Virus record (IMG/VR): IMGVR_UViG_2693429706_000003
DNA: 19,460 nucleotides
Source: a virus
Taxonomy: Duplodnaviria; Heunggongvirae; Uroviricota; Caudoviricetes
Direction: 5' to 3' (one strand)
Both the position numbers and the translations under genes were made by a program. Below, piece by piece: positions 1 through 19,460 of the stretch (position 1 is its first letter; every line of letters begins with the position of its first letter). The notes under the pieces were generated by a model that saw only the letters and a program-made list of their open reading frames with translations, searched no databases and was not told the origin of the DNA.

Positions 1-573
1 ATGTTTTGCGAAGAAAAAGTAGCTCAAATGGCTGCATACCTACTTCTTAAGCGAGGTGGGCGCATGGCATATCTGAAATTGATGAAGTTGCTCTATCTGT
101 CTAACCGCCAGTCGATTTTGAAGCATGGCAGGATGATCGGCGAAGATAGCCTTTACTCTATGAAATTTGGACCAGTCATGTCGAATACGCTGAACTTGAT
201 TCGCGGTAAGGCTGAAGGCATTGGTGACTACTGGTACAACTTGATAGAGACGAACGGGCATAATGTATCGTTGCGTTCAGATCCGAGGGAAATGGATGCA
301 GACGAGGTCTTTGATGAATTGAGTCGTGCAGATATCCGGATTTTAGATGAAATCTATTCTCGGTATGGGCATATGAACCGATTTGATCTCGCAAATATGA
401 CGCATCTAGAAAGCGTTTGTCCAGAGTGGCACGATCCTGGCAATTCTCGTAAGCCTATAGACCTGAAAGAAATGCTGATCAGTGAGGGTAAAAGCGAGGA
501 TGAGGCTAATCGCATAATTGGCAAAATGGAAGAATCTCAGAAACTTAAGGAATTTTCTTTGCAATTATCATGA
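1..573 (+). CDS. Panacea (DUF4065)-domain protein, SocA/PanA-like putative antitoxin; the true start may lie upstream of the window
   Basis: 190-aa ORF starting at window base 1. N-terminal segment 'VAQMAAYLL..LKLMKLLYLSNRQ..MKFGPVMSNTL' fits the Panacea signature (KLxKLLY ... GPV) as I recall it. Low GC relative to the E. coli-like flank. Stop overlaps the next start (ATGA at 570-573). Confidence 0.55.
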   Translation: MFCEEKVAQMAAYLLLKRGGRMAYLKLMKLLYLSNRQSILKHGRMIGEDSLYSMKFGPVMSNTLNLIRGKAEGIGDYWYNLIETNGHNVSLRSDPREMDADEVFDELSRADIRILDEIYSRYGHMNRFDLANMTHLESVCPEWHDPGNSRKPIDLKEMLISEGKSEDEANRIIGKMEESQKLKEFSLQLS

Positions 574-989
574 CGGATTATCAGCCATACAGGAAAGGAA
601 CTGTGCTTGCCCCAACTGGGCCATGCAATCATCTTCATGTGATTTGTAATGATCCTGTTTATTACCCCGTTAACGATTGTTATTGTGTTTTAGTTGTTAA
701 TATTTCTAGTATCAAGGATGGTGTCCCCCACGATCCGTCTTGCGTCTTGAATTCTGGTGATCATCGCTTTATCAAGCATCCAAGTTATGTTGTTTACGCT
801 GAAGCTATAATTTGGCGAGTGGATAACATGGTTAGAAAGCAGCGATCGGGTGAGATTTCTGTTCATGATGATATGCCAGAAGCTACATTCAATAGAATTC
901 TGGACGGTTTTGATATCTCTGATGAAGTTACGCCAAAGAACCTTAAATTTAAAAATAAATATTGCGTATCATCTATTGATGATGAGTAA
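570..989 (+). CDS. hypothetical protein, putative toxin/effector partner of the Panacea-domain protein
   Basis: 139-aa ORF coupled to the upstream gene by an ATGA overlap. Visibly AT-rich. Cys/His-rich N-terminus ('GPCNHLHVICND...DCYC'), no obvious transmembrane segment, no family recognised. Confidence 0.45.
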   Translation: MTDYQPYRKGTVLAPTGPCNHLHVICNDPVYYPVNDCYCVLVVNISSIKDGVPHDPSCVLNSGDHRFIKHPSYVVYAEAIIWRVDNMVRKQRSGEISVHDDMPEATFNRILDGFDISDEVTPKNLKFKNKYCVSSIDDE

Positions 990-1028: not shown

Positions 1029-1202
1029 ATGGAAGATCAAAAAGCAACCAAGCCACAGGTTAAGTTCGACACAATGAAAGCATTCGCAGGTATGGGTGCT
1101 GCTGTTGAAGTTCTGATGAAGGCTGCTCCTAATGCGTTCACTCACGCTACTGTCTCTGGTAAAGAGCAGCAGGGTAAGCTTCGTCGTCGCAAAGCAGCAT
1201 GA
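1029..1202 (+). CDS. small hypothetical protein (57 aa), below the ORF-track length cutoff
   Basis: ATG at 1029 preceded by AGGAG at 1017-1021. Encodes MEDQKATKPQVKFDTMKAFAGMGAAVEVLMKAAPNAFTHATVSGKEQQGKLRRRKAA. Codons are mostly E. coli-preferred (GGT, GCT, CGT, GTT, CTG, AAA, GAA). Stop at 1200-1202 is followed directly by an intrinsic terminator. Confidence 0.4.
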   Translation: MEDQKATKPQVKFDTMKAFAGMGAAVEVLMKAAPNAFTHATVSGKEQQGKLRRRKAA

Positions 1203-1221
1203 TCATAGCTGGTGCTTTTTG

Positions 1222-1250
1222 AAAACCCGCCTTTAGGCGGGTTTTTTATT
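1222..1250. terminator. rho-independent terminator at a convergent junction, probably bidirectional
   Basis: AACCCGCC (1224-1231) / GGCGGGTT (1236-1243) stem with TTTA loop, then a T6 run on the plus strand and an A-rich tract on the other side. Lies between the plus-strand cassette and the minus-strand PrtN-like gene. Confidence 0.7.
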
Positions 1251-1531
1251 TAGTGATGTTCTTTGCCCTTCTGTTTGCTTGTTCTGACCTGTTCCCACTC
1301 GATACGTCCTTCTTCTCGTCTTTTGTCTATGTATTCCGCAAGATCCTGAATATTGATGCAACGTTTTGCTTTTTGTGATGTGCCGATGCGATATGTTGGA
1401 ACGGGCAACTTACAAGCGTTTGCTTTTGCTTCTGCCGTGGCTGGACTCATGCCAAAGTACTTTTGGCTAACTGCTGAGAGTTCAATGTTAGGGGTATTGA
1501 ATTCAGCCATCAGTAAAAACAAGGTGTTCAT
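1250..1531 (-). CDS. PrtN-family (pyocin-activator-like) small DNA-binding protein, possible excisionase/regulator
   Basis: Motifs 'MNTLFLLMAEF', 'LPVPTYRIGTSQKA' and 'IQDLAEYIDKRR' recalled as typical of the PrtN family. Start chosen at ATG 1531 (GGAGAA SD 4 nt upstream) rather than the ORF-track start at 1558. Confidence 0.55.
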   Translation of the reverse strand: MNTLFLLMAEFNTPNIELSAVSQKYFGMSPATAEAKANACKLPVPTYRIGTSQKAKRCINIQDLAEYIDKRREEGRIEWEQVRTSKQKGKEHH

Positions 1532-3222: not shown

Positions 3223-3810
3223 TCACTCTCCTTTGATGCGAATGCCAGCAAGCCAGTTTCTTATGCCGATATATTCAGCGTTCCTGAAACCGCTTTTTAC
3301 ATATATAAATGGCAAGCGAAGATTGTGACCATTGGCTGCCAGGTAGTCTTTACAACCCTGTTCGGTGAAACAGCAGGTAACGAATTCATCAATATCTTTC
3401 ACAGCAACGCGCCGCCATTTTTCTGGTGGTTCCCGAAAGTTTTCATGAAGTAGTTCGAGACGACGACTTTGGAGTTTATTGGCTTCATTGCTATCTTCAT
3501 CAACCCAGACAATCCGGTCATAGTCATAATCAGCATCAACAACAATTTCGCGCTTTTGATACACACAAAACATAGGGTCTGACGTTATTCGATTATCCTG
3601 TGTTCGAATGTTTTCACCGATGATGCCAAACGAATCTGGCGTAGGTTTTGTCTGTAACTCTTCGATACGTTCAGCCAGCGCCGCGCACTTGGCCTCAGCT
3701 TCAGCAAATTTACGCACCAGGTACTCAGCGTTTGTTTCGTTCACTTTCAGATCTCGCGGTACACATTTCCCGCGAAGAAACCCTTCCATTTCGAAAACAT
3801 TCATGCGCAT
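3223..3810 (-). CDS. hypothetical early-left phage protein with N-terminal coiled coil (possibly Ead/Ea22-like)
   Basis: 195-aa ORF with 'AEAEAKCAALAERIEELQ' coiled-coil segment. Start region overlaps the stop of the HD-domain gene; the ATG at 3804 (MNVFEMEG) is the ATGA-coupled alternative. Confidence 0.5.
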   Translation of the reverse strand: MRMNVFEMEGFLRGKCVPRDLKVNETNAEYLVRKFAEAEAKCAALAERIEELQTKPTPDSFGIIGENIRTQDNRITSDPMFCVYQKREIVVDADYDYDRIVWVDEDSNEANKLQSRRLELLHENFREPPEKWRRVAVKDIDEFVTCCFTEQGCKDYLAANGHNLRLPFIYVKSGFRNAEYIGIRNWLAGIRIKGE

Positions 3811-4337
3811 TTGCGTAACCCCGATAACTCGTTAAAACGTTCCATAAACATCCCGTAGGCATGGCCTGGTGACAGTGGAATAACTTTGAACATCTCTGTC
3901 GCCGGGATACCTTCCAGTACAGGCCAGAAAGAACCATCATCAAGCCCGAGATCGCGGCGTTCGGTTGCCAGCATAATGAGATCGGCATATTTCACTGGCG
4001 TGCTCATAACAGGAGGTAACCCGTATTTCTCACGGATTACGGCGTCTATTTTTTCTTCCATCCGTTTATAGTCAGGAAGAAGGCGTTTCAGTGGTGCGGG
4101 GATGTCCTGACAATATGCTTCTGTTGCATCATGCATTAACGCTTCAAAAGCAAATTCCTGCGGTACCAGCTGGCTGCAAAGCACCGCATGTTGGGCGACG
4201 CTGTAGAAGTGTGAAAGATGTCCTGCAAAGCGACAGATATTTGAAAGGGAAACCGCGATATCGTTAATAACGATGTCGTCTTTATTTATCTTGTCATAAT
4301 AAAAATGCTTCCCGGAAAAAGTTTTAATAAATGACAT
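3801..4337 (-). CDS. yfdR: HD-domain phosphohydrolase (5'-deoxynucleotidase YfdR-like)
   Basis: HD motifs ('HLSHFYSVAQHAV', 'ALMHDATEAY'). Start at MSFIKTFSGK with GGAGAA SD, giving 178 aa, the length I recall for CPS-53 YfdR. N-terminal sequence matches my memory of YfdR. Confidence 0.7.
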   Translation of the reverse strand: MSFIKTFSGKHFYYDKINKDDIVINDIAVSLSNICRFAGHLSHFYSVAQHAVLCSQLVPQEFAFEALMHDATEAYCQDIPAPLKRLLPDYKRMEEKIDAVIREKYGLPPVMSTPVKYADLIMLATERRDLGLDDGSFWPVLEGIPATEMFKVIPLSPGHAYGMFMERFNELSGLRKCA

Positions 4338-4464
4338 TTTGTTCTCCACGTATATGCACTGCACCGCGCTGAATTCTGGTAAAAGGAAGCCCTCACCATT
4401 CGGTGATTATTGAGTTAATTACGTTTCCATAAATGCCCCCGCAGGGGCATTTGCAGTAATGAAA

Positions 4465-5289
4465 TCAGGCGGTGAAAGTACCAATAAAGGTTTCTACTTT
4501 GCTGTCTTTGAATTTCTCAACAAGCAGATCACGAAATTCGTTAGCCATTTCTTCCTGCACCGCTTCCAGCTGAATAATGCGCAGAACCAGTACAGGACGA
4601 TCGCCAGTGATAATGCTGAGGCGTAATTTAAATGGACGTTCTTTCAGGCCTTCAAACGGAACGCATTTAAATTCAAATGCCACTGGCATAATGTCTTTGG
4701 TCTTCGCTTCGACAGACTCCATCAGGGAGCGTTTGCCGCTGAAGTCATTATCTTCAAAATCAGCGGTCTGGTTCGCTTCAATTGTGATTTTACGGATCGC
4801 CGCAGCCGCTTTGGTTGCCTGAATGGTGTCACCATTAGCATCAAAGCCCACAAGGTAGTCGGCCCAGTCTTCAATCCATTCTGCCAGTGACTTCTGGGAG
4901 TTACGCTCGCCATTAACAGACAACAGAGCAGAGAACGGTGCTGTCTTTTTCAGTTTGAGAGTGGCAGTGTTATCTGCGTGACCTGGCTCATCAATAGTAC
5001 CCAGGTTAAGCACACTGACGGCACGCATATTATCGGCATCGATAAAGCAGCGGGTGCCTTCATCTGCAAGATCTTTAGAATAACGGGTAAAGTCATCGAT
5101 GCTGGCAGTGGAAAGCGCACCACGGAAACGGAAACGATTTAAATTAAATTTTTCCAGATCATGAATGCGGAAATTCTCAGGCAATGCCACAGCATCGGCA
5201 CCAATCTTACTGATGATTTCATTAACACCCTGAGCAGAAATAAGGGCATGGATTTGATTAATTGCGGTTGCGTCTAAGTTATGAGACAT
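4465..5289 (-). CDS. yfdQ: YfdQ-like protein (DUF2303), function unknown
   Basis: 274-aa ORF with GAGGA SD 7 nt upstream. Size and synteny (directly upstream of the yfdR-like gene) match CPS-53 yfdQ as I recall it. Confidence 0.6.
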
Positions 5290-5354
5290 AATCAGTCCTC
5301 ACTATATAAAGATATTCAGTGATGAGATAAATAATCAGTTAATTAAGAACGATA

Positions 5355-5717
5355 TTAATGACCTGCTGCGCGTAGTTTTCCGTCAGGTTCACCGGCAAGA
5401 GTCAGTAATTGTCCCTGGTCTTCCTGCAGAATAGTCAGGCGACCACCGCGATTGACATACATCGGTGTTTCGGTGGTGTCTTCTTCGGAAATTTTCCCGC
5501 GGTTAGTCGGGCGAACATATGAGAGTTTGTGTTTGATTTTCACACGGTTCTCATCAAATGGTTCGATTTCCAGGTTGAGCGAGACCTTACCTTTGGTTTT
5601 CGTGTTCATCACACCGGAAGCGACTTCACTGAGAACTGCGCCGATTTTGGTTTCAAATACGCCGCCGTCCAGCTCCCCGATAAATGCCTGCACATCAGTA
5701 CTGCGTTCGCTAGCCAT
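5355..5717 (-). CDS. yfdP: YfdP-like hypothetical protein, first gene of the leftward operon
   Basis: Start chosen at ATG 5717 (MASERSTDV...) with GAGGAG SD 7 nt upstream, giving 120 aa. The ORF-track start at 5903 has no SD. Confidence 0.5.
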   Translation of the reverse strand: MASERSTDVQAFIGELDGGVFETKIGAVLSEVASGVMNTKTKGKVSLNLEIEPFDENRVKIKHKLSYVRPTNRGKISEEDTTETPMYVNRGGRLTILQEDQGQLLTLAGEPDGKLRAAGH

Positions 5718-5765
5718 TTTGCTGCTCCTCATCATATCGACCCTGCAAGGTCGGTTAGTTTCTCC

Positions 5766-5854
5766 ACAAAACAGAGAAGAACACCTGCGGTGGCAGCCGC
5801 CCGGATGGATTGGGTTATGAGCCCGTCGTCCGGTGATGCTCTTCTCTGTTTTGT
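5766..5854 (-). other. 15-bp perfect inverted repeat with a 59-nt GC-rich spacer; candidate structured cis-acting RNA in the early-left leader
   Basis: ACAAAACAGAGAAGA (5766-5780) is the exact reverse complement of TCTTCTCTGTTTTGT (5840-5854). The spacer holds further short complementary runs (CCGGA 5801-5805 / TCCGG 5829-5833). Confidence 0.4.
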
Positions 5855-6337
5855 AAAAAGAGCGGTACCAGCCGGAAGCAAGTGTACAAACTGGTACCGC
5901 CAAAGCAGTGGCTGTTGTGGTGACCGGTGCTGATCTCCGGCTTGCGGTTATTTCAGACTCTCACGGGCGTTTAATTGCCCCGCCGAACAGCTCTTTTCCG
6001 CAATAGCTGCAATGTCTTTCGCGCATCAGCCTGCGCATTCACCACAACGCTGAGAGCACTTAGCCAGTTACGGCACCACACTTTGTCGCGGTTCCATAAA
6101 TGCCCTCATCGTTGCACCCTGGTCTCTTCCCAGGCGTCAAACCGAATCGCCACGCTGGTTAGGCGTCTTATCAGCATCATCATTGACTTGCACATTCCGG
6201 CTACCTGGTTTGTTTGCTCGAGCAAGGAGTGGATTGTCCCCTTTAACGTCCCCAGACCGCTAACGACGCATGTGCCATACGCCGTGTTACAACCAAATTT
6301 AGTTTAATCTTGCCTGTGTTATGTTTCTTTTAGATAC

Positions 6338-6403: not shown

Positions 6404-7078
6404 TTAGGCCTTTATTTTGTATCTTCTTGGTTTTCCTGAGAAAATCACTGTACCAATTATAGAGCAATTACCGTTGATCTTAATGTAAGGTTCAGGCCAG
6501 TTTGGGTTTAATGCTTTGAGGTAACGCTGTGTTCCATCTTCTATCAACCGCTTGAAGGTGGTTTCGCCTGTATCGTGCATCAATGCAATAACGTCGTCAC
6601 CGTGGCAGGCAGGGACTTCAGGATCAACAAAAATCATGTCTCCCGGGCGGTACTCATCAATCATTGAATCACCAATCACCCGCAAGATATAAGTCATTTC
6701 GCCACAGGGTACAGGGCAGGGATAAGTTTCTGCTGTGCTCAAATCAACCTCAGAATAGCCAACTTCTTTCCATGCTCCGGCCTGTACCCATGATATGACA
6801 GGGACTAACGTTATTTGTTTGTTAGTAATTGAAACATCAGGTTTTTTTGTGATGTTTGTTGTCTGGTGTTCTTGATCAAGCCATCCGACAGGCAGGTCGA
6901 AACATTTTTCGATGTGCCGTGCCATGCTGTCACCGATATTTTTAGTAGCACCATCTCCCATAAACCTGCTGGTCTGGGTTGGCTCGCGATCAATCATGGT
7001 GGCAAAGGAAGAATTCCCGCCAACACCATCTCTCAGTTTTCTGGCGTTAGACCGCCGGATGTCATGGACTGTTTTCAT
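6404..7078 (-). CDS. cI: CI-like prophage repressor (N-terminal HTH plus C-terminal S24 LexA-type peptidase domain)
   Basis: 224 aa. C-terminal 'VIGDSM' nucleophile-Ser motif and downstream Lys ('TTFKRL') typical of the LexA/CI autocleavage domain. Divergent from the cro-like gene, with operators between them. Confidence 0.85.
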   Translation of the reverse strand: MKTVHDIRRSNARKLRDGVGGNSSFATMIDREPTQTSRFMGDGATKNIGDSMARHIEKCFDLPVGWLDQEHQTTNITKKPDVSITNKQITLVPVISWVQAGAWKEVGYSEVDLSTAETYPCPVPCGEMTYILRVIGDSMIDEYRPGDMIFVDPEVPACHGDDVIALMHDTGETTFKRLIEDGTQRYLKALNPNWPEPYIKINGNCSIIGTVIFSGKPRRYKIKA

Positions 7079-7400: not shown

Positions 7401-7964
7401 ATGAGGCTAACCGTGGGTAAGCATCACTGGAAAGTAGAAAAACAGCCTGAGTGGTACGTGAAAGCTGTCAGAAAAACTATCGCGGCGTTGCCGGGAGGTT
7501 ACGCTGAAGCTGCTGAGTGGCTGGATGTAACAGAGAACGCTTTATTCAACCGCCTTCGTGCAGATGGCGATCAGATTTTCCCGCTGGGATGGGCAATGAT
7601 TTTACAGCGCGCGGCTGGCACTCACTACATTGCGGATGCTGTCGCACAGTCTGCTGGTGGGGTGTTTGTATCGCTTCCTGAACTTGAGGAAGTAGAGAAC
7701 GCCGATATAAACCAGCGCCTGCTGGAAGTCATCGAACAGATCGGGAGTTACTCAAAGCAGATTCGTTCGGCAATCGAAGATGGGGTAGTGGAGCCACACG
7801 AGCAGACAGCAATTAATGATGAGTTGTATCTGTCAATTTCGAAGCTCCAGGAGCATGCAGCACTGGTCTACAAAATCTTTTGCGCTCCAGAAAAGAGTGA
7901 CGCCCGCGAGTGTGCAGCTCCGGGCGTCGTGGCGTTTTGTGTCTGTGGAGAAACTAACGCATGA
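7401..7964 (+). CDS. CII-like phage regulatory protein (YdaT/CP76 family, tentative)
   Basis: 187-aa ORF directly after cro. Family call rests on position and overall resemblance only. An alternative GTG start at 7413 has an AGG 6 nt upstream. Confidence 0.45.
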   Translation: MRLTVGKHHWKVEKQPEWYVKAVRKTIAALPGGYAEAAEWLDVTENALFNRLRADGDQIFPLGWAMILQRAAGTHYIADAVAQSAGGVFVSLPELEEVENADINQRLLEVIEQIGSYSKQIRSAIEDGVVEPHEQTAINDELYLSISKLQEHAALVYKIFCAPEKSDARECAAPGVVAFCVCGETNA

Positions 7965-9109
7965 ACAGTTTAACGGCAAATAACCGTTTGTCGCAACAGC
8001 TGGTGGTCAGCGTCGCTGAACACCTGTTGTTACGGCATGAATGCAGATTACCAAATCACCTGGCTGTAAGTAACCACAGAGAACTTTACCTGACTGTGGG
8101 GGGCGAGTTGTGCAGGAACTTAACCGCTGGTTTCGTGACGGAAGAGGGCTTTATGTCCATGTTATTCGTTGGGAGCCAGAAACACAGCGCGTTATCTATC
8201 TTCGCAAAGACTACCCGCATGAGTGCTTTAGTCCTTTGTGGAAATTCAGGCGTGATTTTGTTGAGTGTGAAGGACCACCAGCACATTGATTCTGCCATTC
8301 CGGGACGTTACACTGTTCAGGCACCTTATAAAGCGGGTGTCGGGATTGGCGTCCTGGAAATGTTATCGGCGATATATGACGCGCCAGCGTCTTTTTTATC
8401 GTCTGCGTCTGTGCACACCCAAATTATGGTGGGCTGGACGGGGGCACCGAAAGGTGCGCCGGTTTCCGATAACGCCGGTTACGCCAACCCCGTTCAGTTC
8501 ACCACCAGCGAAATTGGCGTTTCCGGTGGTGAAGGTAATTCACTGTTATCGGAGACTGCCATCATGGCTACGATCCCAACCCTCACTCAACCTGAAATTG
8601 CCATCGTTGATGGTCAGGCTGTTACTTCATCCCTGGCTGTTGCCAACTTCTTCTCCAAACGTCATGACGATGTACTGAAAAAGATCCGCACGCTTGAATG
8701 TTCCGCATCATTCACTGCCCGCAATTTTTCGGTGAGTGATTACACCGATTGCACAGGCCGCAAACTACCTTGCTATCAAATAACCCGCGACGGCTTTGCG
8801 TTTCTTGCTATGGGTTTCACGGGTAAACGTGCTGCCCAGTTCAAAGAGGCATACATCAATGCCTTTAACCAGATGGAGAAACAGCTTTCAAAGCCCGCTG
8901 TACCGAGCGACGTTGCACATAACGCCAGCGTTCTCTATTCCTACATTTCATCAATTCATCAGGTCTGGTTGCAGCAGCTTTATCCCATGCTGGAAAAAGC
9001 TGAATCACCTCTGGCTGTAAGTCTGTATGACCGAATTAACGATGCGGCATTTCTTGCCCGTCTTATTCATTCGTCGCTGAACTCTTCAGAGGTAAGGGGG
9101 CGCAAATGA
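7961..9109 (+). CDS. Rha-family phage regulatory protein with a ~200-aa unrecognised N-terminal region (may instead be two genes, with Rha starting at ATG 8564)
   Basis: Residues from 'MATIPTLTQPEIAIVDGQAVTSSLAVANFFSKRHDDVLKKI' match the Rha domain as recalled. ATG 7961 overlaps the upstream stop (ATGA). Third-position GC favours frame 2 over the alternative frame in 8101-8220. GGAG lies 9 nt before the internal ATG 8564. Confidence 0.5.
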   Translation: MNSLTANNRLSQQLVVSVAEHLLLRHECRLPNHLAVSNHRELYLTVGGELCRNLTAGFVTEEGFMSMLFVGSQKHSALSIFAKTTRMSALVLCGNSGVILLSVKDHQHIDSAIPGRYTVQAPYKAGVGIGVLEMLSAIYDAPASFLSSASVHTQIMVGWTGAPKGAPVSDNAGYANPVQFTTSEIGVSGGEGNSLLSETAIMATIPTLTQPEIAIVDGQAVTSSLAVANFFSKRHDDVLKKIRTLECSASFTARNFSVSDYTDCTGRKLPCYQITRDGFAFLAMGFTGKRAAQFKEAYINAFNQMEKQLSKPAVPSDVAHNASVLYSYISSIHQVWLQQLYPMLEKAESPLAVSLYDRINDAAFLARLIHSSLNSSEVRGRK

Positions 9110-9330
9110 TCCGGAATATTTTCAAACGATTTACCAATCAGACTTTCCGTTGTCCTCGCCCCGGTCAGTGGTACACCACGCCTGCAGGGCATGTTCTACG
9201 TGTTAGCCTGGTTGACCGTGAATGTCAGAAGGTGATTTGTGAACCGCTGGGCCGTAATTACCGCGTCAGTATGCCGCTTATAGCCTTTCGCTCCGGAAAA
9301 AACATGAAGCATCTCGGAGGTGCGGCATGA
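9106..9330 (+). CDS. small hypothetical protein
   Basis: 74-aa ORF with ATGA overlaps to both neighbours (9106 with the Rha stop, 9327 with the O-like start). Confidence 0.4.
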   Translation: MIRNIFKRFTNQTFRCPRPGQWYTTPAGHVLRVSLVDRECQKVICEPLGRNYRVSMPLIAFRSGKNMKHLGGAA

Positions 9331-10319
9331 GCCTGTTAATGACATCCCAGCCCATTGTGATAAATCGTGATCTTGCATGCCGTATTGGTCTGAATGAGGC
9401 AATTGTGTTGCAGCAGCTTCATTACTGGCTGAATGAAACGAATTCAGGCACTGAGCATGGCGGAATTCGCTGGGTTTATAACACGACAGAACAGTGGCTG
9501 GAGCAGTTTCCGTTCTGGTCAGAGTCCACTCTGAAACGCACATTTGCAAGCCTGAAATCACTTGGGGTTTTGCGTCGCGAGCAACTCAATAAATCGAAGC
9601 GTGACATGACCAACTTCTACACGATCAACTATGAAAGTGAGCTTTTAGAAGAGGTCAAAGTGAACGAATCCATCAGGTCAAAATGCACTTCTCCATCGGG
9701 TCAAAGTGACCTGATGGATGGGCGCAAAATGACACGATCCATTGGTTCAAAACGACACGCTGTCATCGGGTCAAAATGGCCCAATGATCTTACAGAGAAT
9801 ACAACAGAGATTACTACAGAGAATAAAACCTCTTCTCGTCCGGACGCTTCGCAACCGGACACGCAAACGGCTGAACAGGAGTTTTTAACTCGCCATCCTG
9901 ATGCGGTTGTATTCAGCCCTAAAAAGCGCCAGTGGGGAACGCAGGATGATTTGACCTGCGCACAGTGGCTCTGGAAAAAAATCATCGCCCTGTACGAGCA
10001 GGCCGCCGAATGTGACGGCGAGGTGGTTCGTCCCAAAGAACCGAACTGGACAGCCTGGGCAAACGAAATTCGCCTGATGTGTGTGCAGGATGGTCGTACT
10101 CACAAACAAATCTGCGAGATGTACAGCCGCGTCAGCCGCGATCCGTTCTGGTGCCGTAACGTGCTCAGCCCGTCGAAGCTGCGGGAAAAATGGGATGAGC
10201 TTTCCCTGCGCTTATCGCCGTCCGTCAGCACATACACAGAAAAACGCGAAGACCCATATTTCAAATCCAGTTACGACAACGTGGACTACAGCCAGATCCC
10301 GGCAGGATTCAGGGGGTGA
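9327..10319 (+). CDS. phage replication initiator (lambda O-like N-terminal domain, possible DnaT-like C-terminal region)
   Basis: 330 aa with GGAGG SD 6 nt upstream. N-terminal 'RIGLNEAIVLQQLHYWL' resembles the Phage_rep_O winged helix. Iteron-like repeats sit inside the gene, as with ori in lambda O. Confidence 0.65.
   Translation: MSLLMTSQPIVINRDLACRIGLNEAIVLQQLHYWLNETNSGTEHGGIRWVYNTTEQWLEQFPFWSESTLKRTFASLKSLGVLRREQLNKSKRDMTNFYTINYESELLEEVKVNESIRSKCTSPSGQSDLMDGRKMTRSIGSKRHAVIGSKWPNDLTENTTEITTENKTSSRPDASQPDTQTAEQEFLTRHPDAVVFSPKKRQWGTQDDLTCAQWLWKKIIALYEQAAECDGEVVRPKEPNWTAWANEIRLMCVQDGRTHKQICEMYSRVSRDPFWCRNVLSPSKLREKWDELSLRLSPSVSTYTEKREDPYFKSSYDNVDYSQIPAGFRG
9671..9779. repeat. four ~15-bp direct repeats inside the O-like gene, candidate replication-origin iterons
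   Basis: CATCAGGTCAAAATG (9671), CATCGGGTCAAAGTG (9694), CATTGGTTCAAAACG (9740), CATCGGGTCAAAATG (9765). Confidence 0.6.
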
Positions 10320-10321
10320 GC

Positions 10322-10810
10322 ATGAGTATTTTGAATGAAGTTCAGAAATTCATTGAAGCCCATCCGGGCTGTACTTCCGGAGACATTGCGGATGCTTTTG
10401 CAGGTTACTCACGGCAGCGCGTTCTGCAGTCAGCAAGCAAGTTACGTCAGAGTGGGCGTGTGGCTCACCGTTGTGAAGGAGATACACGCAGACATTTCTC
10501 GCGCCTGACTGAGAGAGCGCAGGAGCCGGAACCACAACCAGTTCGTGAAACCAGACCTGTGCGCAAGTTCTATGTCGGCACTAACGACCCCCGGGTGATT
10601 TTGTGCCTGACCCGCCAGGCTGAAGAACTGGAGTCGAGGGGCTTATACCGTCGTGCTGCAACGGTGTGGATGGCGGCATTCCGTGAAAGCCACTCCCAGC
10701 CAGAACGAAACAATTTTCTGGCGCGTCGTGAACGGTGTTTACGGAAAAGCAGTAAGCGGGCTGCATCAGGTGAAGAGTGGTATCTCTCAGGGAATTACGT
10801 GGGGGCTTAA
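10322..10810 (+). CDS. PerC-family transcriptional regulator-like protein
   Basis: 'AEELESRGLYRRAATVWMAAF' matches the PerC/Pch core as recalled. AGGGGG SD precedes ATG 10322; a GTG at 10316 is the ORF-track alternative. Confidence 0.5.
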   Translation: MSILNEVQKFIEAHPGCTSGDIADAFAGYSRQRVLQSASKLRQSGRVAHRCEGDTRRHFSRLTERAQEPEPQPVRETRPVRKFYVGTNDPRVILCLTRQAEELESRGLYRRAATVWMAAFRESHSQPERNNFLARRERCLRKSSKRAASGEEWYLSGNYVGA

Positions 10811-11463
10811 TGAGTAATAAATATTGCCAGGCGCTGGCGGAACTGCGGAACAAACCAGCCCATGAACTGAAGGAAGTGGGCGATCAGTGGCGCACGCCGG
10901 ACAACATTTTCTGGGGAATTAACACCCTGTTTGGCCCGTTTGTTCTGGATCTGTTCACTGACGGTGATAACGCCAAATGTGCTGCGTATTACACGGCGGA
11001 AGACAACGCGCTGGCGCATGACTGGTCAGAACGCCTTGCGGAGCTTAAAGGTGCTGCCTTTGGTAATCCCCCATACAGCCGCGCCAGTCAGCATGAGGGG
11101 CAATACATCACCGGCATGCGTTACATCATGAAGCATGCCAGTGCCATGCGTGATAAAGGCGGGCGCTATGTTTTCCTGATCAAAGCTGCCACCAGCGAAG
11201 TGTGGTGGCCGGAAGATGCAGATCATATTGCTTTTATTCGCGGGCGTATTGGTTTTGAACTGCCTGCCTGGTTTATCCCGAAGGATGAGAAGCAGGTGCC
11301 GACAGGCGCTTTCTTCGCTGGTGCTATTGCTGTTTTCGACAAGACCTGGAAGGGACCGGCAATCAGCTACATCGGGCGCGATGAACTTGAGGCATGTGGT
11401 GAGGCCTTTCTGGCGCAGGTTCGCCAGCAGGCAGAAAAACTGGTCAGGGAGATGGCGGCATGA
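10810..11463 (+). CDS. phage Dam-like N6-adenine DNA methyltransferase
   Basis: 'FGNPPYS' catalytic motif. ATG 10810 overlaps the upstream stop (TAATG); the stop overlaps the next start. Confidence 0.7.
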   Translation: MSNKYCQALAELRNKPAHELKEVGDQWRTPDNIFWGINTLFGPFVLDLFTDGDNAKCAAYYTAEDNALAHDWSERLAELKGAAFGNPPYSRASQHEGQYITGMRYIMKHASAMRDKGGRYVFLIKAATSEVWWPEDADHIAFIRGRIGFELPAWFIPKDEKQVPTGAFFAGAIAVFDKTWKGPAISYIGRDELEACGEAFLAQVRQQAEKLVREMAA

Positions 11464-11786
11464 CGACGTTAACTCAATGCCAGCAGCAGGTGCTGGATAT
11501 GCTGATTTCTTATCAGAAAGAACGTGGCTTCCCGCCAACCAATCAGGAGGTGGCAACCATGCTGGGATACCGTTCAGTGAATGCAGCGGTGGAGCATCTT
11601 CGCGCACTGGAGAAAAAAGGCGTCATCACGATAAAGCGTGGCGTGGCCCGGGGCATCACGCTTCATACCGCGGTGAAGGACGACGACAGCGAGGCGGTCG
11701 GTATCATCCGCGCACTGCTTGCCGGTGAGGAGAACGCCAGGTTGCGTGCAGCCCACTGGTTACATGAGAGGGGCCTGAAAGTATGA
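11460..11786 (+). CDS. LexA N-terminal DNA-binding-domain protein lacking the S24 peptidase domain
   Basis: 108 aa. 'LTQCQQQVLDMLISYQKERGFPPTNQEVATMLGYRSVNAAVEHLRALEKKGVI' parallels the LexA winged HTH. No GDSM/Lys peptidase motifs. Confidence 0.7.
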   Translation: MTTLTQCQQQVLDMLISYQKERGFPPTNQEVATMLGYRSVNAAVEHLRALEKKGVITIKRGVARGITLHTAVKDDDSEAVGIIRALLAGEENARLRAAHWLHERGLKV

Positions 11787-12172
11787 AGCTAATACTGCCT
11801 TTTCCGCCCAGCGTGAACACGTACTGGCGACACCCCAACAAAGTGGCGTTTGCAGGTAAGAGCCTGATAAGCGCGGCGGGGCGCAAATTCCAGAGCGCGG
11901 CGTGTGCAGCAATAGTTGAGCAGTTACGTCGTCTGCCGAAACCAACGTCGGCACCTGCTTCAGTGGAGATCGTGTTGTTTCCTCCGGATAACAGGATCCG
12001 CGATCTGGACAACTATAACAAGGCGCTGTTTGACGCCCTGACCCACGCGGGGGTGTGGGAAGACGACAGTCAGGTGAAAAGAATGCTGGTGGAGTGGGGA
12101 CCGGTTATCCCGGAAGGGAAGGTCGAGATCACTATCAGTAAGTACGAGAAAACGGCGGGTGCAGCTGCCTGA
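11783..12172 (+). CDS. rusA: RusA Holliday-junction resolvase
   Basis: 129 aa with the RusA N-terminal motif 'LPFPPSVNTYW' and acidic 'DLDNYNKALFDAL' segment. Confidence 0.85.
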   Translation: MKLILPFPPSVNTYWRHPNKVAFAGKSLISAAGRKFQSAACAAIVEQLRRLPKPTSAPASVEIVLFPPDNRIRDLDNYNKALFDALTHAGVWEDDSQVKRMLVEWGPVIPEGKVEITISKYEKTAGAAA

Positions 12173-12191
12173 TTAAGAGGAGAAACGAAGT

Positions 12192-13001
12192 ATGAATAAT
12201 CTGATGGTCATTGATGGTATTGAAGTTCGTCGTGATGCTTATGGGCGTTACAGCCTGAACGATCTGCATCGCGCAGCAGTAGCATCTGGTGCAAATGCCA
12301 GAACCAAGGAGCCAGGAAAGTTTCTTTCCAGCCAACAAACTGTTGAGCTTGTTCATGAATTAACCAACACCCAGAATTTGGGTGTTGACCCGGTGAGTGT
12401 GATTCATGGGGGAAATGAACGGGGAACGTATGTCTGTAAGGAACTGGTGTATGCCTATGCAATGTGGATCAGCCCGTCATTCCATCTGAAGGTGATCCGT
12501 ACTTTCGATATGGTAACCAGCGCGCCGGAAAAGTTATCCGGACAGGCTGCTGACAAGATGCAGGCTGGCGTGATCCTGCTGGACTTTATGCGCCGGGAGT
12601 TAAATCTGTCTAACTCTTCAGTGCTTGGTGCCTGTCAGAAACTCCAGGAGGCTGTTGGCTTACCGAATCTGGCACCGCGCTATGCCATTGATGCACCTGC
12701 TGACGCGCCTGATGGCTCAAGCCGCCCGACGCTGTCGCTGAGTGCACTGCTGAAGCAGTATGGTATCCGCCTGACGGCTAATCAGGCATATCACCAGATG
12801 GTGAAGCTGGGGATCGTCGAGCAGCGCGAACGATACAGCCGTACCGGGATTAACAACATCAAAAAATTCTGGTCGCTGACGGCGAAAGGCTGCATGTTCG
12901 GCAAGAACATCACCAGTCCCGCAAATCCGCGTGAGACGCAGCCGCATTTCTTCGAATCCCGATTCCCTGAGCTGTTAAAGCTGCTCGATACCGTTCATTG
13001 A
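12192..13001 (+). CDS. KilA-N domain protein (antirepressor-like)
   Basis: N-terminal 'YSLNDLHRA...GTYVCKELVYAYAMWISPSFHLKVIRTFD' fits KilA-N as recalled. Confidence 0.65.
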   Translation: MNNLMVIDGIEVRRDAYGRYSLNDLHRAAVASGANARTKEPGKFLSSQQTVELVHELTNTQNLGVDPVSVIHGGNERGTYVCKELVYAYAMWISPSFHLKVIRTFDMVTSAPEKLSGQAADKMQAGVILLDFMRRELNLSNSSVLGACQKLQEAVGLPNLAPRYAIDAPADAPDGSSRPTLSLSALLKQYGIRLTANQAYHQMVKLGIVEQRERYSRTGINNIKKFWSLTAKGCMFGKNITSPANPRETQPHFFESRFPELLKLLDTVH

Positions 13002-13002
13002 G

Positions 13003-13998
13003 GTGACCGTGAGAGCACTACTGACCCCTGAAATTGCCCCGCGTATGGGGATCGTATTGTTCAGGCCAGGTTCAGAGCTGATGCCCCTGTTTATGCAGGG
13101 GCGTGTCCTGCTGGAGCCTGAGCCGGAACGTTATTCATCTTTCGCCAGTGGTGCCGTTCCGGCGGTATCACAACCGCTGGCGGATGATCCTGCCGTTCGG
13201 GCCGTGTTCCGCAATGAGGCAGTGATCCGTCGTGCTGGTGGCGTGGAATGTCTTGAAAGCTGGTTACTTCGTGAAAAAGGCTGCCAGTGGCCTCATTCCG
13301 ACTGGCACAGCGAGAACATGACCACAATGCGACACGCTCCGGGCGCAATCCGTCTGTGCTGGCACTGCGATAACCAGCTGCGCGATCAGTTCACGGAACG
13401 GCTGGAATCAATGGCAACGGATAACTGTGCCCGCTGGGTGTTGTCTGTAGTCCGTCGGGATCTCGGTTTTGATGATAACCATGCCGTGACAATGCCGGAA
13501 CTGTGCTGGTGGCTGATTCGTAATGACCTGGCGGATGCCTTACCTGAAAGCGCAGCCCGTAAGGCGCTGAGATTACCGAAACCTGTTGTGCCGTCTGTCA
13601 CCCGGGAGAGTGACCTTGTGCCTTCGGTTCCTGCCACCAGCATCATCCAGGATAAAGCGAAAAAGGTGCTGGCGCTGAAAGTGGATCCGGAGTCGCCGGA
13701 GTCTTTTATGTTACGCCCAAAACGCCGCCGCTGGGTTAATGAAAAGTACACGCGCTGGGTTAAGACACAGCCGTGTGCATGTTGTGGAAAGCCTGCTGAT
13801 GATCCCCACCACCTGATAGGCCACGGTCAGGGTGGAATGGGTACAAAAGCGCATGACCTCTTTGTGTTGCCTTTGTGCAGAAAGCATCACGACGAGCTGC
13901 ATGCGGATACCGTGGCATTTGAAGAGAAGTATGGCTCCCAGCTGGAGCTGATATTTCGTTTTATCGATCGTGCGCTGGCAATAGGCGTGCTGGCCTGA
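13003..13998 (+). CDS. DUF968-like protein with C-terminal Cys/His (HNH-like) motif
   Basis: 331-aa ORF. C-terminal 'CACCGKPADDPHHLIGHG...LPLCRKHHDELH' is a Cys/His cluster of HNH type. GTG start overlaps the KilA-N stop. Confidence 0.5.
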   Translation: MTVRALLTPEIAPRMGIVLFRPGSELMPLFMQGRVLLEPEPERYSSFASGAVPAVSQPLADDPAVRAVFRNEAVIRRAGGVECLESWLLREKGCQWPHSDWHSENMTTMRHAPGAIRLCWHCDNQLRDQFTERLESMATDNCARWVLSVVRRDLGFDDNHAVTMPELCWWLIRNDLADALPESAARKALRLPKPVVPSVTRESDLVPSVPATSIIQDKAKKVLALKVDPESPESFMLRPKRRRWVNEKYTRWVKTQPCACCGKPADDPHHLIGHGQGGMGTKAHDLFVLPLCRKHHDELHADTVAFEEKYGSQLELIFRFIDRALAIGVLA

Positions 13999-14425: not shown

Positions 14426-14460
14426 TAACCTCCTGATGATACCTGTTCATCGGGAGGTTA
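14426..14460 (+). promoter_or_regulatory. 14-bp stem-loop that sequesters the SD of the downstream AT-rich ORF
   Basis: TAACCTCCTGATGA (14426-14439) pairs with TCATCGGGAGGTTA (14447-14460): 13 Watson-Crick pairs plus one G-U, 7-nt loop. The right arm contains GGGAGG, 5 nt before ATG 14463. Confidence 0.45.
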
Positions 14461-14462
14461 TT

Positions 14463-15080
14463 ATGGATAAAAATGTAGAGCATGTATTAGTTGATGCAAT
14501 TGAAAATAAGCAATCTTTAACAGTCGTTTACTTAGGAGGGAGCCAGCCCGGAACATTAAGGAATATTTCTCCGATTAGTATAAATGGGGATAAATTGCGG
14601 GCAAGATGCCATAGTTCTGGAGCAGTAAAGGTTTTCAATCTTGGGAAAATACAGTTACCCAGTGACTCCTGCGCGGTATCTATGCACTATGGAGATTTAG
14701 AAGTTAAAGCTTATGAGACGATGCAGAGCGTAAATGACAACTTTCATGCCCTTTATCCTGAAGGACGATGGGGTGTTGATTTTAATGAGCATCGCTTTGC
14801 TTTATTTGATTTTTTTAAAAACGGGAAACGAAAAAAAACGGCATTTATGGCAATTGAGTTCAGGGAAAGAGATGAAGAGAAAATAATAACAGGTGTAACA
14901 ATTGATATTGGTATATCTGGAACAGTGATTTCTGAGAAGTCCCGAATCCCAAAAAGACGACCATGGGTAGTGGTTGGTCCCGAACACGGAGAATACAGTA
15001 CTTATTCAACTTTGGACAAGGCTGCTACAGCGTTTTTTGAGAGGCTTTCGTTGATAGCATCCGGCCTGGAAGATAATTGA
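14463..15080 (+). CDS. AT-rich hypothetical cargo protein with a possible N-terminal WYL-like domain
   Basis: 205 aa from ATG 14463. Markedly lower GC than its neighbours. 'LTVVYLGGSQPGTLRNISPISINGDKLRARCHSSGAVKVFNLGKIQL' fits the WYL-type pattern (Y...R.I.P...L.A.C...+.F.L.+I) by eye. Confidence 0.5.
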   Translation: MDKNVEHVLVDAIENKQSLTVVYLGGSQPGTLRNISPISINGDKLRARCHSSGAVKVFNLGKIQLPSDSCAVSMHYGDLEVKAYETMQSVNDNFHALYPEGRWGVDFNEHRFALFDFFKNGKRKKTAFMAIEFRERDEEKIITGVTIDIGISGTVISEKSRIPKRRPWVVVGPEHGEYSTYSTLDKAATAFFERLSLIASGLEDN

Positions 15081-16878: not shown

Positions 16879-16888
16879 NNNNNNNNNN
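16879..16888. other. assembly gap (10 N)
   Basis: Literal run of n characters. Contiguity between the prophage and copA cannot be assumed. Confidence 0.99.
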
Positions 16889-16955: not shown

Positions 16956-19460
16956 TTATTCCTTCGGTTTAAACCGCAGCAACCGGTTGGCGTTACTCAC
17001 TACGGTAATCGACGAGAGCGCCATTGCCGCTCCGGCAACTACCGGGTTAAGCAGTGTTCCAGTGAACGGCCACAAAATACCGGCGGCGACCGGAATACCG
17101 ATACTGTTGTAGATAAACGCACCGAGCAGGTTCTGCTTCATGTTGTGCAGCGTTGCGCGGGAAATAGCGAGCGCATCCGCAACGCCCATCAGGCTATGGC
17201 GCATCAGGGTAATCGCCGCGGTTTCAATGGCAACATCACTGCCGCCACCCATCGCAATGCCGACATCCGCCTGAGCCAGCGCTGGCGCGTCGTTAATGCC
17301 GTCGCCCACCATTGCCACCTGACGTCCTTCACTTTGCAGATGTTTGATCGCTTCGGCTTTACCGTCCGGCAGCACCCCGGCGATCACCTCATCAATCCCT
17401 GCTTCTTTGGCGATCGCATTGGCGGTGGTTGGGTTATCCCCGGTCAACATCACCAGACGATATCCCGCTTTATGCAGGCGTTGCAGCGCCGCCACGCTAT
17501 CACTACGCAATGGATCGCGTACAGCCAGCAGGGCTACTGCTTTCCCGTCAATCGCCAGCAGCACAGGCGTTGCTCCTTGCGATGCCTGAGCTGAAATATC
17601 GGCTTCAATCGCTTTAGTATCGACTTGCTGATCATTTAACAACGCCTGATTGCCCAGCAATAACGCATGACCTTCAGCTTCACCGCTCACGCCCAGCCCG
17701 CGCAATGTGCGGAAACCGTTGACCTGCGGTAGCTGCATATCGCCTGCTTTATCGAGGATCGCTCGTGCCAGCGGATGGCTGGAACCTTGTTCCAGTGCCG
17801 CCGCCAGACGCAATGCCTGCGCTTCATCAACATCAGCAAATGTTTTCACTGCGACAACCTGCGGCTTCCCTTCGGTCAGCGTCCCGGTTTTATCGAACAC
17901 GACGGTATCGAGTGTACTGGCGCGTTGCAGCGCGTCGGCGTCCCGCACCAGCACGCCAAACTCAGCCGCCCGCCCGACGCCGGAAATAATCGACATCGGC
18001 GTCGCCAGCCCCAGCGCACACGGACAGGCGATAATCAGTACCGTGGTGGCAATCACCAGGGTATAAACAATTTGCGGTGCCGGACCAAAGAAGTACCAGA
18101 TTGCCGCACTGACCAGCGCAATCACCACCACCACAGGTACAAATACGGCTGAGATTTTATCCGCCAGCTGACCGATTTCTGGCTTGCTGCTCTGGGCCTG
18201 GCGCACCATGCGAATGATCCGTGACAGCGTGGTATGGCTGCCAACCGCACTGGCACGAAACAGCACACTGCCGTCCTGTACCACTGTCCCGGCATGGACG
18301 CTTTCGCCTTCGCCTTTTTGCTGTGGGATTGGTTCGCCCGTCAGCATCGCTTCATCCAGCCATGCTTCGCCCTGGGTAATCTCGCCATCTACCGGCACGC
18401 GATCGCCGGTCGTCAGGCGCAGTAACATCCCTGGCTGAACTTCCGCCAGCGGCACGCTTTTTTCACCCTCTGCGGTGACCACTCGCGCCGTCGGTGGGGT
18501 TAAATCGAGTAATTTCTCCAGCGCCTTAGAAGAACGCTGACGTGCGCGCGCTTCCAGCATATGGCCGAGATTAATCAGACCGATAATCATCGCACTGGCT
18601 TCATAGTAAAGATGCCGCGCTTCCATCGGGAACCACTGCGGCCACAGGTTGACGCTCATCGAATAGAGCCACGCCACACCCGTTCCCAGCGCCACCAGCG
18701 TATCCATCGTCGCTGCACCGTTCAGCAGGCTTTTCCATGCACTGCGGTAAAAATGGCCGCCGGCGAAAACCATCACTGCCAGGGTTATCAGGCCGATAAC
18801 TAACCACAAGCTGCGGTTGTCAGCGGTGACCATCATGTTATCGCCGATCATCCCCCAGACCATTACCGGGATACCCACAGCCAGTGCAACAATTGCCTGC
18901 CAGCGGAAGCGCTTCATCGTAGCTACGGCGGTTTCTTGCTGGCGCTCGCGGCGTTTAGCGTCATCTTCAATCGCTTCCGCACCGTAGCCCGCTTTTTCCA
19001 CCGCCTGCACTAAATCTTGTGGGGAGGCACTGCCCATCACCAGCGCAGTACGCTCCGCCAGGTTTACCCGTGCCTGAGTGACGCCCGGTACGCTTTGCAG
19101 CGCATTTTGTACGCGGGTGACACAGCTGGCGCAGCTCATGCCGCTCAGCAGCAACTGCTGGCTGTCATCGTCATCGGCGGTCGCTGCCGGAAGCGCCTCA
19201 GAAACCGCTGTCAGTGCTTCCGACGGGATTGATGACTCCGCCAGCGGTTTAGCCTTTGGGTGGCTTACAGATGCGTCATAACCCGCTTGTTTGATGGTTT
19301 CGATCAGCTGTTCTGCACTGGCAGTCCCGGTAACGTGCGCTTCAGTGATAGACACATCCGCCTGCTCAACATCCGGGCGCTGTTCAAGACTTTCTTTCAC
19401 GCGTTTAACGCAGTGACCGCAGGACAGGCCGTCCAGGGTCAGGTCGATAGTTTGTGACAT
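16956..19460 (-). CDS. copA: copper-exporting P1B-type ATPase CopA
   Basis: 834 aa, full length. Two N-terminal CxxC metal-binding domains (GLSCGHC, GMSCASC), CPC membrane motif, DKTGT phosphorylation site, GDGINDAP hinge. Sequence matches E. coli CopA as recalled. Confidence 0.95.
19254..19260 (-). promoter_or_regulatory. copA: copA programmed -1 ribosomal frameshift slippery heptamer (C CCA AAG)
   Basis: Minus-strand CAC CCA AAG GCT at codons His67-Pro68-Lys69. A -1 slip reads CCC AAA GGC TAA, ending a 70-aa product, the size reported for CopA(Z). Confidence 0.6.

Follow-up and report, generated by a model that had tools for sequence, protein, structure and literature searches.

We found that the first 989 nucleotides of a 19,460-nucleotide stretch of viral DNA (IMG/VR virus record IMGVR_UViG_2693429706_000003, Caudoviricetes; hereafter the window) most probably carry a PanAT-type cassette, a type II toxin-antitoxin pair that sits as a moron near the attachment site of a lambdoid Escherichia coli prophage. 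The cassette consists of open reading frame (ORF) 1, panA, which encodes a Panacea protein as the putative antitoxin, and ORF2, panT, which encodes the putative toxin. We favour this reading because ORF1 is a genuine PanA, a PanA gene stands beside every ORF2 homologue examined, the cassette moves as a unit, and the published toxin cluster to which we assign ORF2, T6, contains a validated member. An earlier note, made from the sequence without database searches, had proposed a toxin-antitoxin or abortive-infection module with a novel effector. Its toxin-antitoxin reading is borne out by the evidence set out below, whereas the effector does not appear to be new: ORF2 is placed in cluster T6 alongside the validated protein of Pseudomonas moraviensis, and its model has a MazF fold.

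A Panacea gene and its overlapping partner

ORF1 matches the Pfam model PF13274 (SocA_Panacea) over residues 27-137 with an E-value of 2.2e-19 and 70.9 bits (gathering score 25.7), and RefSeq names the protein 'Panacea domain-containing protein' (WP_000458584.1). The Panacea/DUF4065 signature that the earlier note had read from the translation is therefore real. The Pfam scan returned no further domain, and the protein is without an N-terminal DNA-binding domain. C-terminal to the Pfam domain extends a tail of about 50 residues, conserved in length and pattern in 22 cognate PanAs, which we regard as a candidate neutralising element.

The window opens on the ATG of panA, and extension upstream in identical loci of complete genomes reveals a GAGG 8 nucleotides 5' of this codon. 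Cognate PanA homologues open with M-[FY]-x-E-x-K-x-A-Q, and ORF1 opens with MFCEEKVAQ; we thus take the ATG at base 1 to be the true start of ORF1. The stop codon of panA and the start codon of panT share an ATGA (Table 1), as had been noticed before, and this overlap would imply translational coupling of the two genes. RefSeq/PGAP starts ORF2 at GTG 603 (128 residues, WP_014640052.1), a form from which 11 conserved residues at the N-terminus are missing and in which the overlap with panA goes unseen. Residues 1-11 of the ATG-570 form are kept in 31 homologues, with the consensus M-T-x-Y-x-P-Y-R-K-G-T, and ATG 570, which gives the coupled 139-residue protein, therefore seems the better call. 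Both forms are present in the protein collection, in about 1,000 contigs apiece.

The low guanine-plus-cytosine (GC) content that had drawn attention to the cassette is likewise evident: it amounts to 41.4% for the cassette and 38.6% for ORF2, against 49.4% for the whole window. Among stretches of equal size, the cassette ranks within the bottom 6% and ORF2 within the bottom 4%. Low GC is not confined to the cassette, though, and is lower still at 14.0-15.4 kilobases.

Linkage of panT relatives to panA

A survey with one genome per species returned 26 loci with ORF2 relatives, ranging from Enterobacterales to Methylococcales, Burkholderiales, Sphingomonadales and Rhodobacterales. In 24 of the 24 loci with usable upstream sequence, which span alpha-, beta- and gammaproteobacteria, the end of a PanA-like ORF lies no further than about 30 nucleotides from the toxin start, and the two often overlap by 4 or 1 nucleotides. 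All 22 upstream proteins that were scanned match PF13274, and both co-inheritance with PanA and the overlap hold across roughly 30-87% identity. Adjacency to Panacea genes, which the earlier note had named as a check on its reading, is thus the rule among these relatives.

In prophages of Enterobacter, Klebsiella and Citrobacter (loci L031-L034, 3432-4453) the same two-gene cassette sits within the tail operon, between a Prok-JAB/NlpC-P60 gene and a J-like tip gene. In Proteus and Providencia (locus L038, 1657-4408) it occupies one end of a prophage, with either an Abi_2 gene or ATPase and protease genes as neighbours, and in Aureimonas it is found in a non-phage setting among transporter genes. 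Since the flanks differ completely between these groups, panA and panT can be regarded as an autonomous unit that moves between unrelated contexts.

Membership in the published toxin cluster T6

PanA and PanT were defined by Kurata et al. (2022, PNAS), with 88 toxin clusters (PMC8832971). Judged by sequence, ORF2 belongs to their cluster T6. Under T6, Dataset S1 of that study lists 'Yersiniaceae bacterium 2016Iso4', with toxin WP_101821906.1 in the order A|T and an overlap of -1, and Pantoea septica LMG 5345, with an overlap of -4, together with entries from Proteus, Pluralibacter and Photorhabdus (PMC8832971). Two of our loci come from these strains: in strain 2016Iso4 the toxin is exactly WP_101821906.1, which is 56% identical to ORF2, and the Pantoea septica LMG 5345 locus has the same -4 overlap as in Dataset S1.

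Cluster T6 also holds the PanT of P. moraviensis, which carries the HHpred label 'EndoA/PemK/MazF-family RNAses' and is marked as part of a validated toxin-antitoxin pair (PMC8832971). This PanT is toxic in E. coli and is rescued by its PanA; it specifically blocks incorporation of 35S-methionine, as the MazF control does, and not that of thymidine (PMC8832971).

A predicted MazF-type fold with its own set of conserved residues

ORF2 has no credible match in Pfam (E-values up to 1), NCBIfam or PADLOC. The earlier note had recognised no family for the partner, and these libraries hold none either; the sole match in family libraries was the phage family phrog_19071, function not known, and the published cluster T6 takes in the protein as well. 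Two results were set aside as noise, namely a weak Pfam match to ICMT (E-value 0.05, 18 residues) and NCBIfam matches to DapC that reached 17 bits where more than 500 are required. When 121 sampled family members were compared with Pfam, no plausible model emerged, and three isolated weak matches were judged to be noise. The family is nonetheless large: a profile search of 1.84 billion representatives gave at least 2,724 clusters (50% identity, E-values up to 1e-3), 946 of them at E-values up to 1e-10.

The AlphaFold2 model of ORF2, built with 32 homologues, reached a predicted local distance difference test score (pLDDT) of 92.7 and a predicted template modelling score (pTM) of 0.86. A Foldseek search of this model against the PDB, the kind of check that the earlier note had proposed for the 139-residue protein, placed MazF/EndoA/MoxT-type toxins at all of the top 50 positions (probability 1.0, target template modelling score 0.65). 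Matches in BFVD were phage 'PemK-like' proteins, and the match to the MazF-family ribonuclease (RNase) fold agrees across three structure libraries. The predicted fold is thus an SH3-like barrel of the MazF/Kid/CcdB type, to which the model adds, relative to MazF, two C-terminal helices (residues 104-116 and 122-131) that carry the conserved G113 and S117.

Several polar residues are nearly invariant among 121 diverse relatives, namely H21 and S/T72 (121/121 each), S/T47 and Y76 (119/121 each), C58 and H65 (118/121 each) and D55 (117/121). The description of ORF2 as Cys/His-rich stands in a modest sense, with 6 Cys and 6 His making up 8.6% of its residues; across the family, H21, C58 and H65 alone of these are conserved. 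A four-ligand zinc cluster, which such a composition might suggest, was rejected, as H23 and C26, to which the E. coli protein owes its Cys/His-rich look, are not conserved: most of the distant relatives have F or Y at H23 and L, M, I or V at C26. In E. coli MazF, the catalytic residues are R29, at the start of strand 2, and T52, at the end of strand 3. Placed by eye, H21 starts strand 2, at the spot of the MazF Arg, and S/T47 ends strand 3, at the spot of the MazF Thr, in an alignment without statistical support.

An exchangeable moron next to the attachment site

Over its first 1,300 bases the window shares 99-99.9% identity with two Escherichia phages, SKA5 and Lys8385Vzw, and with prophages of 205 among 5,426 complete E. 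coli genomes; in these 205 genomes the panA and panT reading frames are intact at 99% identity or more. The gene order in complete genomes and phages is integrase, a phage-borne 5' fragment of dusA at the attachment site, a spacer of about 250 base pairs (bp), panA, ORF2 and ORF3, followed on the opposite strand by a PrtN-type excisionase, an exonuclease and the remaining early-left genes. The cassette accordingly lies where it had been placed from the window itself, at the end of the element and facing the minus-strand early-left genes.

The segment 1-1300 is matched in 565 E. coli genomes, of which the 205 named above have the cassette and 360 only the ORF3/xis part. Phage mEp460 also shares the ORF3/xis part without panAT, and its slot between integrase/attP and ORF3 is filled by an unrelated gene for a 177-residue protein, gp23 (locus L029, 2784-3317), which has no Pfam match. 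Because the ORF3/xis part thus occurs without the cassette, in mEp460 with another gene in its place, we interpret the cassette as a moron that can be exchanged, located where the lambdoid prophage has its attachment site. The slot next to attP looks like a cargo hotspot.

Proposed mechanism and alternative explanations

We propose that panA and panT would be transcribed into one mRNA and translated together, coupled through the ATGA. The stand-alone PanA would bind PanT directly and hold it inactive. A stand-alone Panacea protein is known to neutralise a toxin directly, and Panacea has been proposed as a possible sensor (PMC10440598). Once freed, be it by loss or degradation of PanA or by a phage-derived cue, PanT with its MazF-type fold would stop growth through a shutdown of protein synthesis, for which cleavage of mRNA, tRNA or rRNA is the likeliest means. 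PanT is probably an RNase, as its predicted fold and the phenotype of its relative suggest. The C-terminal tail of PanA may be the part that neutralises PanT, and the module may act in prophage addiction or in phage defence.

Several observations weigh against the PanAT interpretation. Neither ORF2 (E-values up to 1) nor any of the 121 diverse relatives matches the Pfam model PF02452 (PemK_toxin), and a search of PDB sequences with the family profile by hmmsearch returned nothing at E-values up to 10. When the family profiles A2 (26 sequences) and A5 (121 sequences) were aligned by hhalign with E. coli MazF and with a five-member MazF/Kid/EndoA/ChpBK alignment (profile checked against the PDB), probabilities were 0.1-0.5%. 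This leaves ORF2 with no sequence-level link to MazF, so that no residue mapping can be claimed, and the canonical catalytic Arg and Thr of MazF are not mappable onto ORF2 with statistical support. The models of PADLOC-DB v2 are matched by none of ORF1, ORF2 and ORF3 (E-values up to 1). The tie of ORF2 to the validated P. moraviensis protein runs through the clustering made by Kurata et al. Finally, the prophage pairs of E. coli MOD1 and Salmonella phage Emek proved non-toxic in E. coli (PMC8832971); they belong to PanT cluster T1 and not T6, and were therefore ruled out as members of the ORF2 family. A predicted PanT thus need not be toxic.

These non-toxic pairs bear on the thought that panA and panT are a conserved pair that makes no working toxin-antitoxin system in E. 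coli, with a PanT that does its native host no harm or attacks only a phage or foreign target. In total, 8 of the 25 PanTs predicted in that study showed no toxicity in E. coli (PMC8832971). The strict co-inheritance with PanA and the ATGA coupling over the whole range of identities, the reading frames kept intact in 205 E. coli genomes and the toxicity of the tested T6 member in E. coli all speak for a working pair, and we consider the failure of the system in this host quite unlikely. It is more improbable by far that PanT acts like CcdB and poisons DNA gyrase instead of translation: the better structural matches are all MazF/Kid-type RNases, and the effect of the tested T6 member was specific to protein synthesis and spared thymidine incorporation.

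A more substantial challenge concerns chemistry. PanTs of cluster T6 could use the MazF/CcdB scaffold for another reaction, in which His21, Asp55, Cys58 and His65 would bind a metal or make up a catalytic Cys/His/Asp centre directed at a component of translation. These four residues are nearly invariant and none of them is a known catalytic residue of MazF; similarity to MazF was not detected at the sequence level, and the extra helices have conserved residues of their own. The RNase reading draws on the agreement of three structure libraries and on the likeness of the tested homologue to the MazF control in metabolic labelling, and also, without statistical support, on the by-eye position of H21 and S/T47 at the Arg and Thr spots. 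On balance we hold a different chemistry to be rather unlikely.

As to its role, the PanAT module might serve anti-phage defence by abortive infection: the Panacea protein would sense an infecting phage and free PanT, and translation would stop before the phage cycle is completed. Such a role competes with an addiction or 'selfish' role and leaves the molecular architecture untouched. For the E. coli cassette, location and neighbours hint at defence, as it occupies a moron slot by attP whose content varies, an unrelated gene being found there in mEp460, is present in only 205 of the 565 matching genomes, and has a Proteus/Providencia counterpart that adjoins Abi_2 and other defence-like genes. 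However, no PADLOC model was matched, our literature search found no phage-defence test of any PanAT pair, and the family occurs outside prophages too. We therefore regard the defence role as a possibility of some standing, though speculative and still the lesser one. Its combination with a changed active site, in which a new enzyme with a metal or catalytic His21/Asp55/Cys58/His65 centre on the MazF/CcdB scaffold and a Panacea phage sensor would form an uncatalogued abortive-infection system, strikes us as unlikely.

Neighbouring genes and further features of the window

ORF3, which follows panT (Table 1), occurs in mEp460 without panAT and does not adjoin panAT in other contexts. It is best read as part of the phage backbone and as lying outside the toxin-antitoxin module; it is probably co-transcribed with panA and panT. 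The first terminator after the three genes is an intrinsic-terminator-like hairpin between ORF3 and the convergent xis gene. Upstream of panA, a promoter scan of the identical locus found one weak sigma-70-like site, no more than in shuffled sequence.

Table 1. Features of the PanAT cassette and its downstream flank, in window coordinates
Feature	Position	Strand	Description
panA (ORF1)	1..573	+	190 residues; predicted Panacea (DUF4065) antitoxin, stand-alone
panT (ORF2)	570..989	+	139 residues; predicted toxin, PanT cluster T6
ATGA shared by panA stop codon and panT start codon	570..573	+	Read directly from the sequence; overlap of -4 or -1 also in homologous loci and in T6 rows of Dataset S1
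ORF3	1029..1202	+	57 residues; phrog_2741 (E-value 8e-36); 39 nucleotides 3' of panT; AGGAG ribosome-binding site
Intrinsic-terminator-like hairpin	1221..1253	+	11-bp stem, then a T run; from a scan of the identical locus L001 (9221-9246 = window 1221-1246)

The window is mosaic in comparison with the dusA prophage of strain WP4-S18-ESBL-09 (locus L030): identity is 99.8% at 1-2154, 96.7% at 3705-5902 and 97.5% at 9317-13994, and the parts in between differ. A cI-like S24 repressor gene (6404..7078, minus strand) is followed downstream by a gene for a 382-residue protein with the phage-regulatory domains Ash and Rha (7961-9109, plus strand). The most AT-rich stretch (36-40% GC) holds an ORF of 214 residues (14436-15080, plus strand) without a Pfam match. 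With the Q antiterminator on one side and a DNA methylase on the other, it may be another moron. In one E. coli genome a 'WYL domain-containing protein' is annotated somewhere within the Q-to-methylase stretch.

A run of nine N at 16880-16888 marks a scaffold gap. Before it, the prophage sequence (Q antiterminator, unknown ORF, DNA methylase and the start of a lysis gene) ends at about 16878; host DNA follows. This consists of a gene on the minus strand (16956-19460, 58% GC) for a CopA-like, 834-residue P-type ATPase with two HMA domains, which is part of the chromosome of the host; its start codon forms the very end of the window. The junction across the gap was found in one place in none of the 5,426 complete E. 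coli genomes. The adjacency of prophage and copA is therefore an assembly join and no evidence of an integration site.

Significance for annotation

Our analysis adds little new biology, as the 2022 publication had already described the family and its pairing with PanA and had shown one member to be toxic. Its use lies mainly in annotation: a 'hypothetical protein' that about 4% of the complete E. coli genomes (205/5,426) encode receives a name and a likely function, and the RefSeq start of the toxin is corrected from GTG 603 to ATG 570. A profile model would be worth building for this large family (at least 2,724 clusters), which has none in Pfam. The biochemistry of T6 toxins is of interest in its own right, since their MazF fold bears a conserved His/Asp/Cys/His set that is unusual.

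Comparison with known systems

SocAB of Caulobacter crescentus, a type VI system, includes the founding Panacea/SocA protein, and its antitoxin shares the Pfam SocA_Panacea domain with ORF1. Nevertheless, ORF1 scores just 14.4 bits with the NCBIfam SocA equivalog NF047745, whose cut-off is 190. The toxin SocB is directed at the beta sliding clamp, and SocA serves as an adaptor for ClpXP; this toxin is unrelated to the MazF-fold toxin. CcdAB of the F plasmid is likewise distinct, in that its structural score lies below those of all MazF-type RNases and the tested T6 relative hits translation and not DNA synthesis.

MazEF and Kid-Kis (PemIK) resemble the pair described here in their small bicistronic operon with the antitoxin gene first, and the tested T6 relative, too, acts on translation. 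In place of the Panacea protein, however, they use an antitoxin of the AbrB or ribbon-helix-helix type (MazE/PemI). ORF2 furthermore differs from their toxins in lacking a match to the Pfam PemK_toxin model, in its other conserved set (H21, D55, C58, H65) and in its two additional C-terminal helices.

The PanAT pair of P. moraviensis (PanT WP_083201923.1, PanA WP_083354365.1) is chromosomal ('NotPhage' in Dataset S1), whereas the E. coli copy lies on a lambdoid prophage next to attP. It resembles ORF1-ORF2 in several respects: it shares T6 membership, the order of antitoxin before toxin and an overlap of 1-4 nucleotides. Its PanA is also without an N-terminal domain and, after correction of its start by Kurata et al. 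(PMC8832971), opens with MIFSEQKVAQ, which resembles the MFCEEKVAQ of ORF1. The prediction of its toxin as EndoA/PemK/MazF-like agrees with the fold predicted for ORF2.
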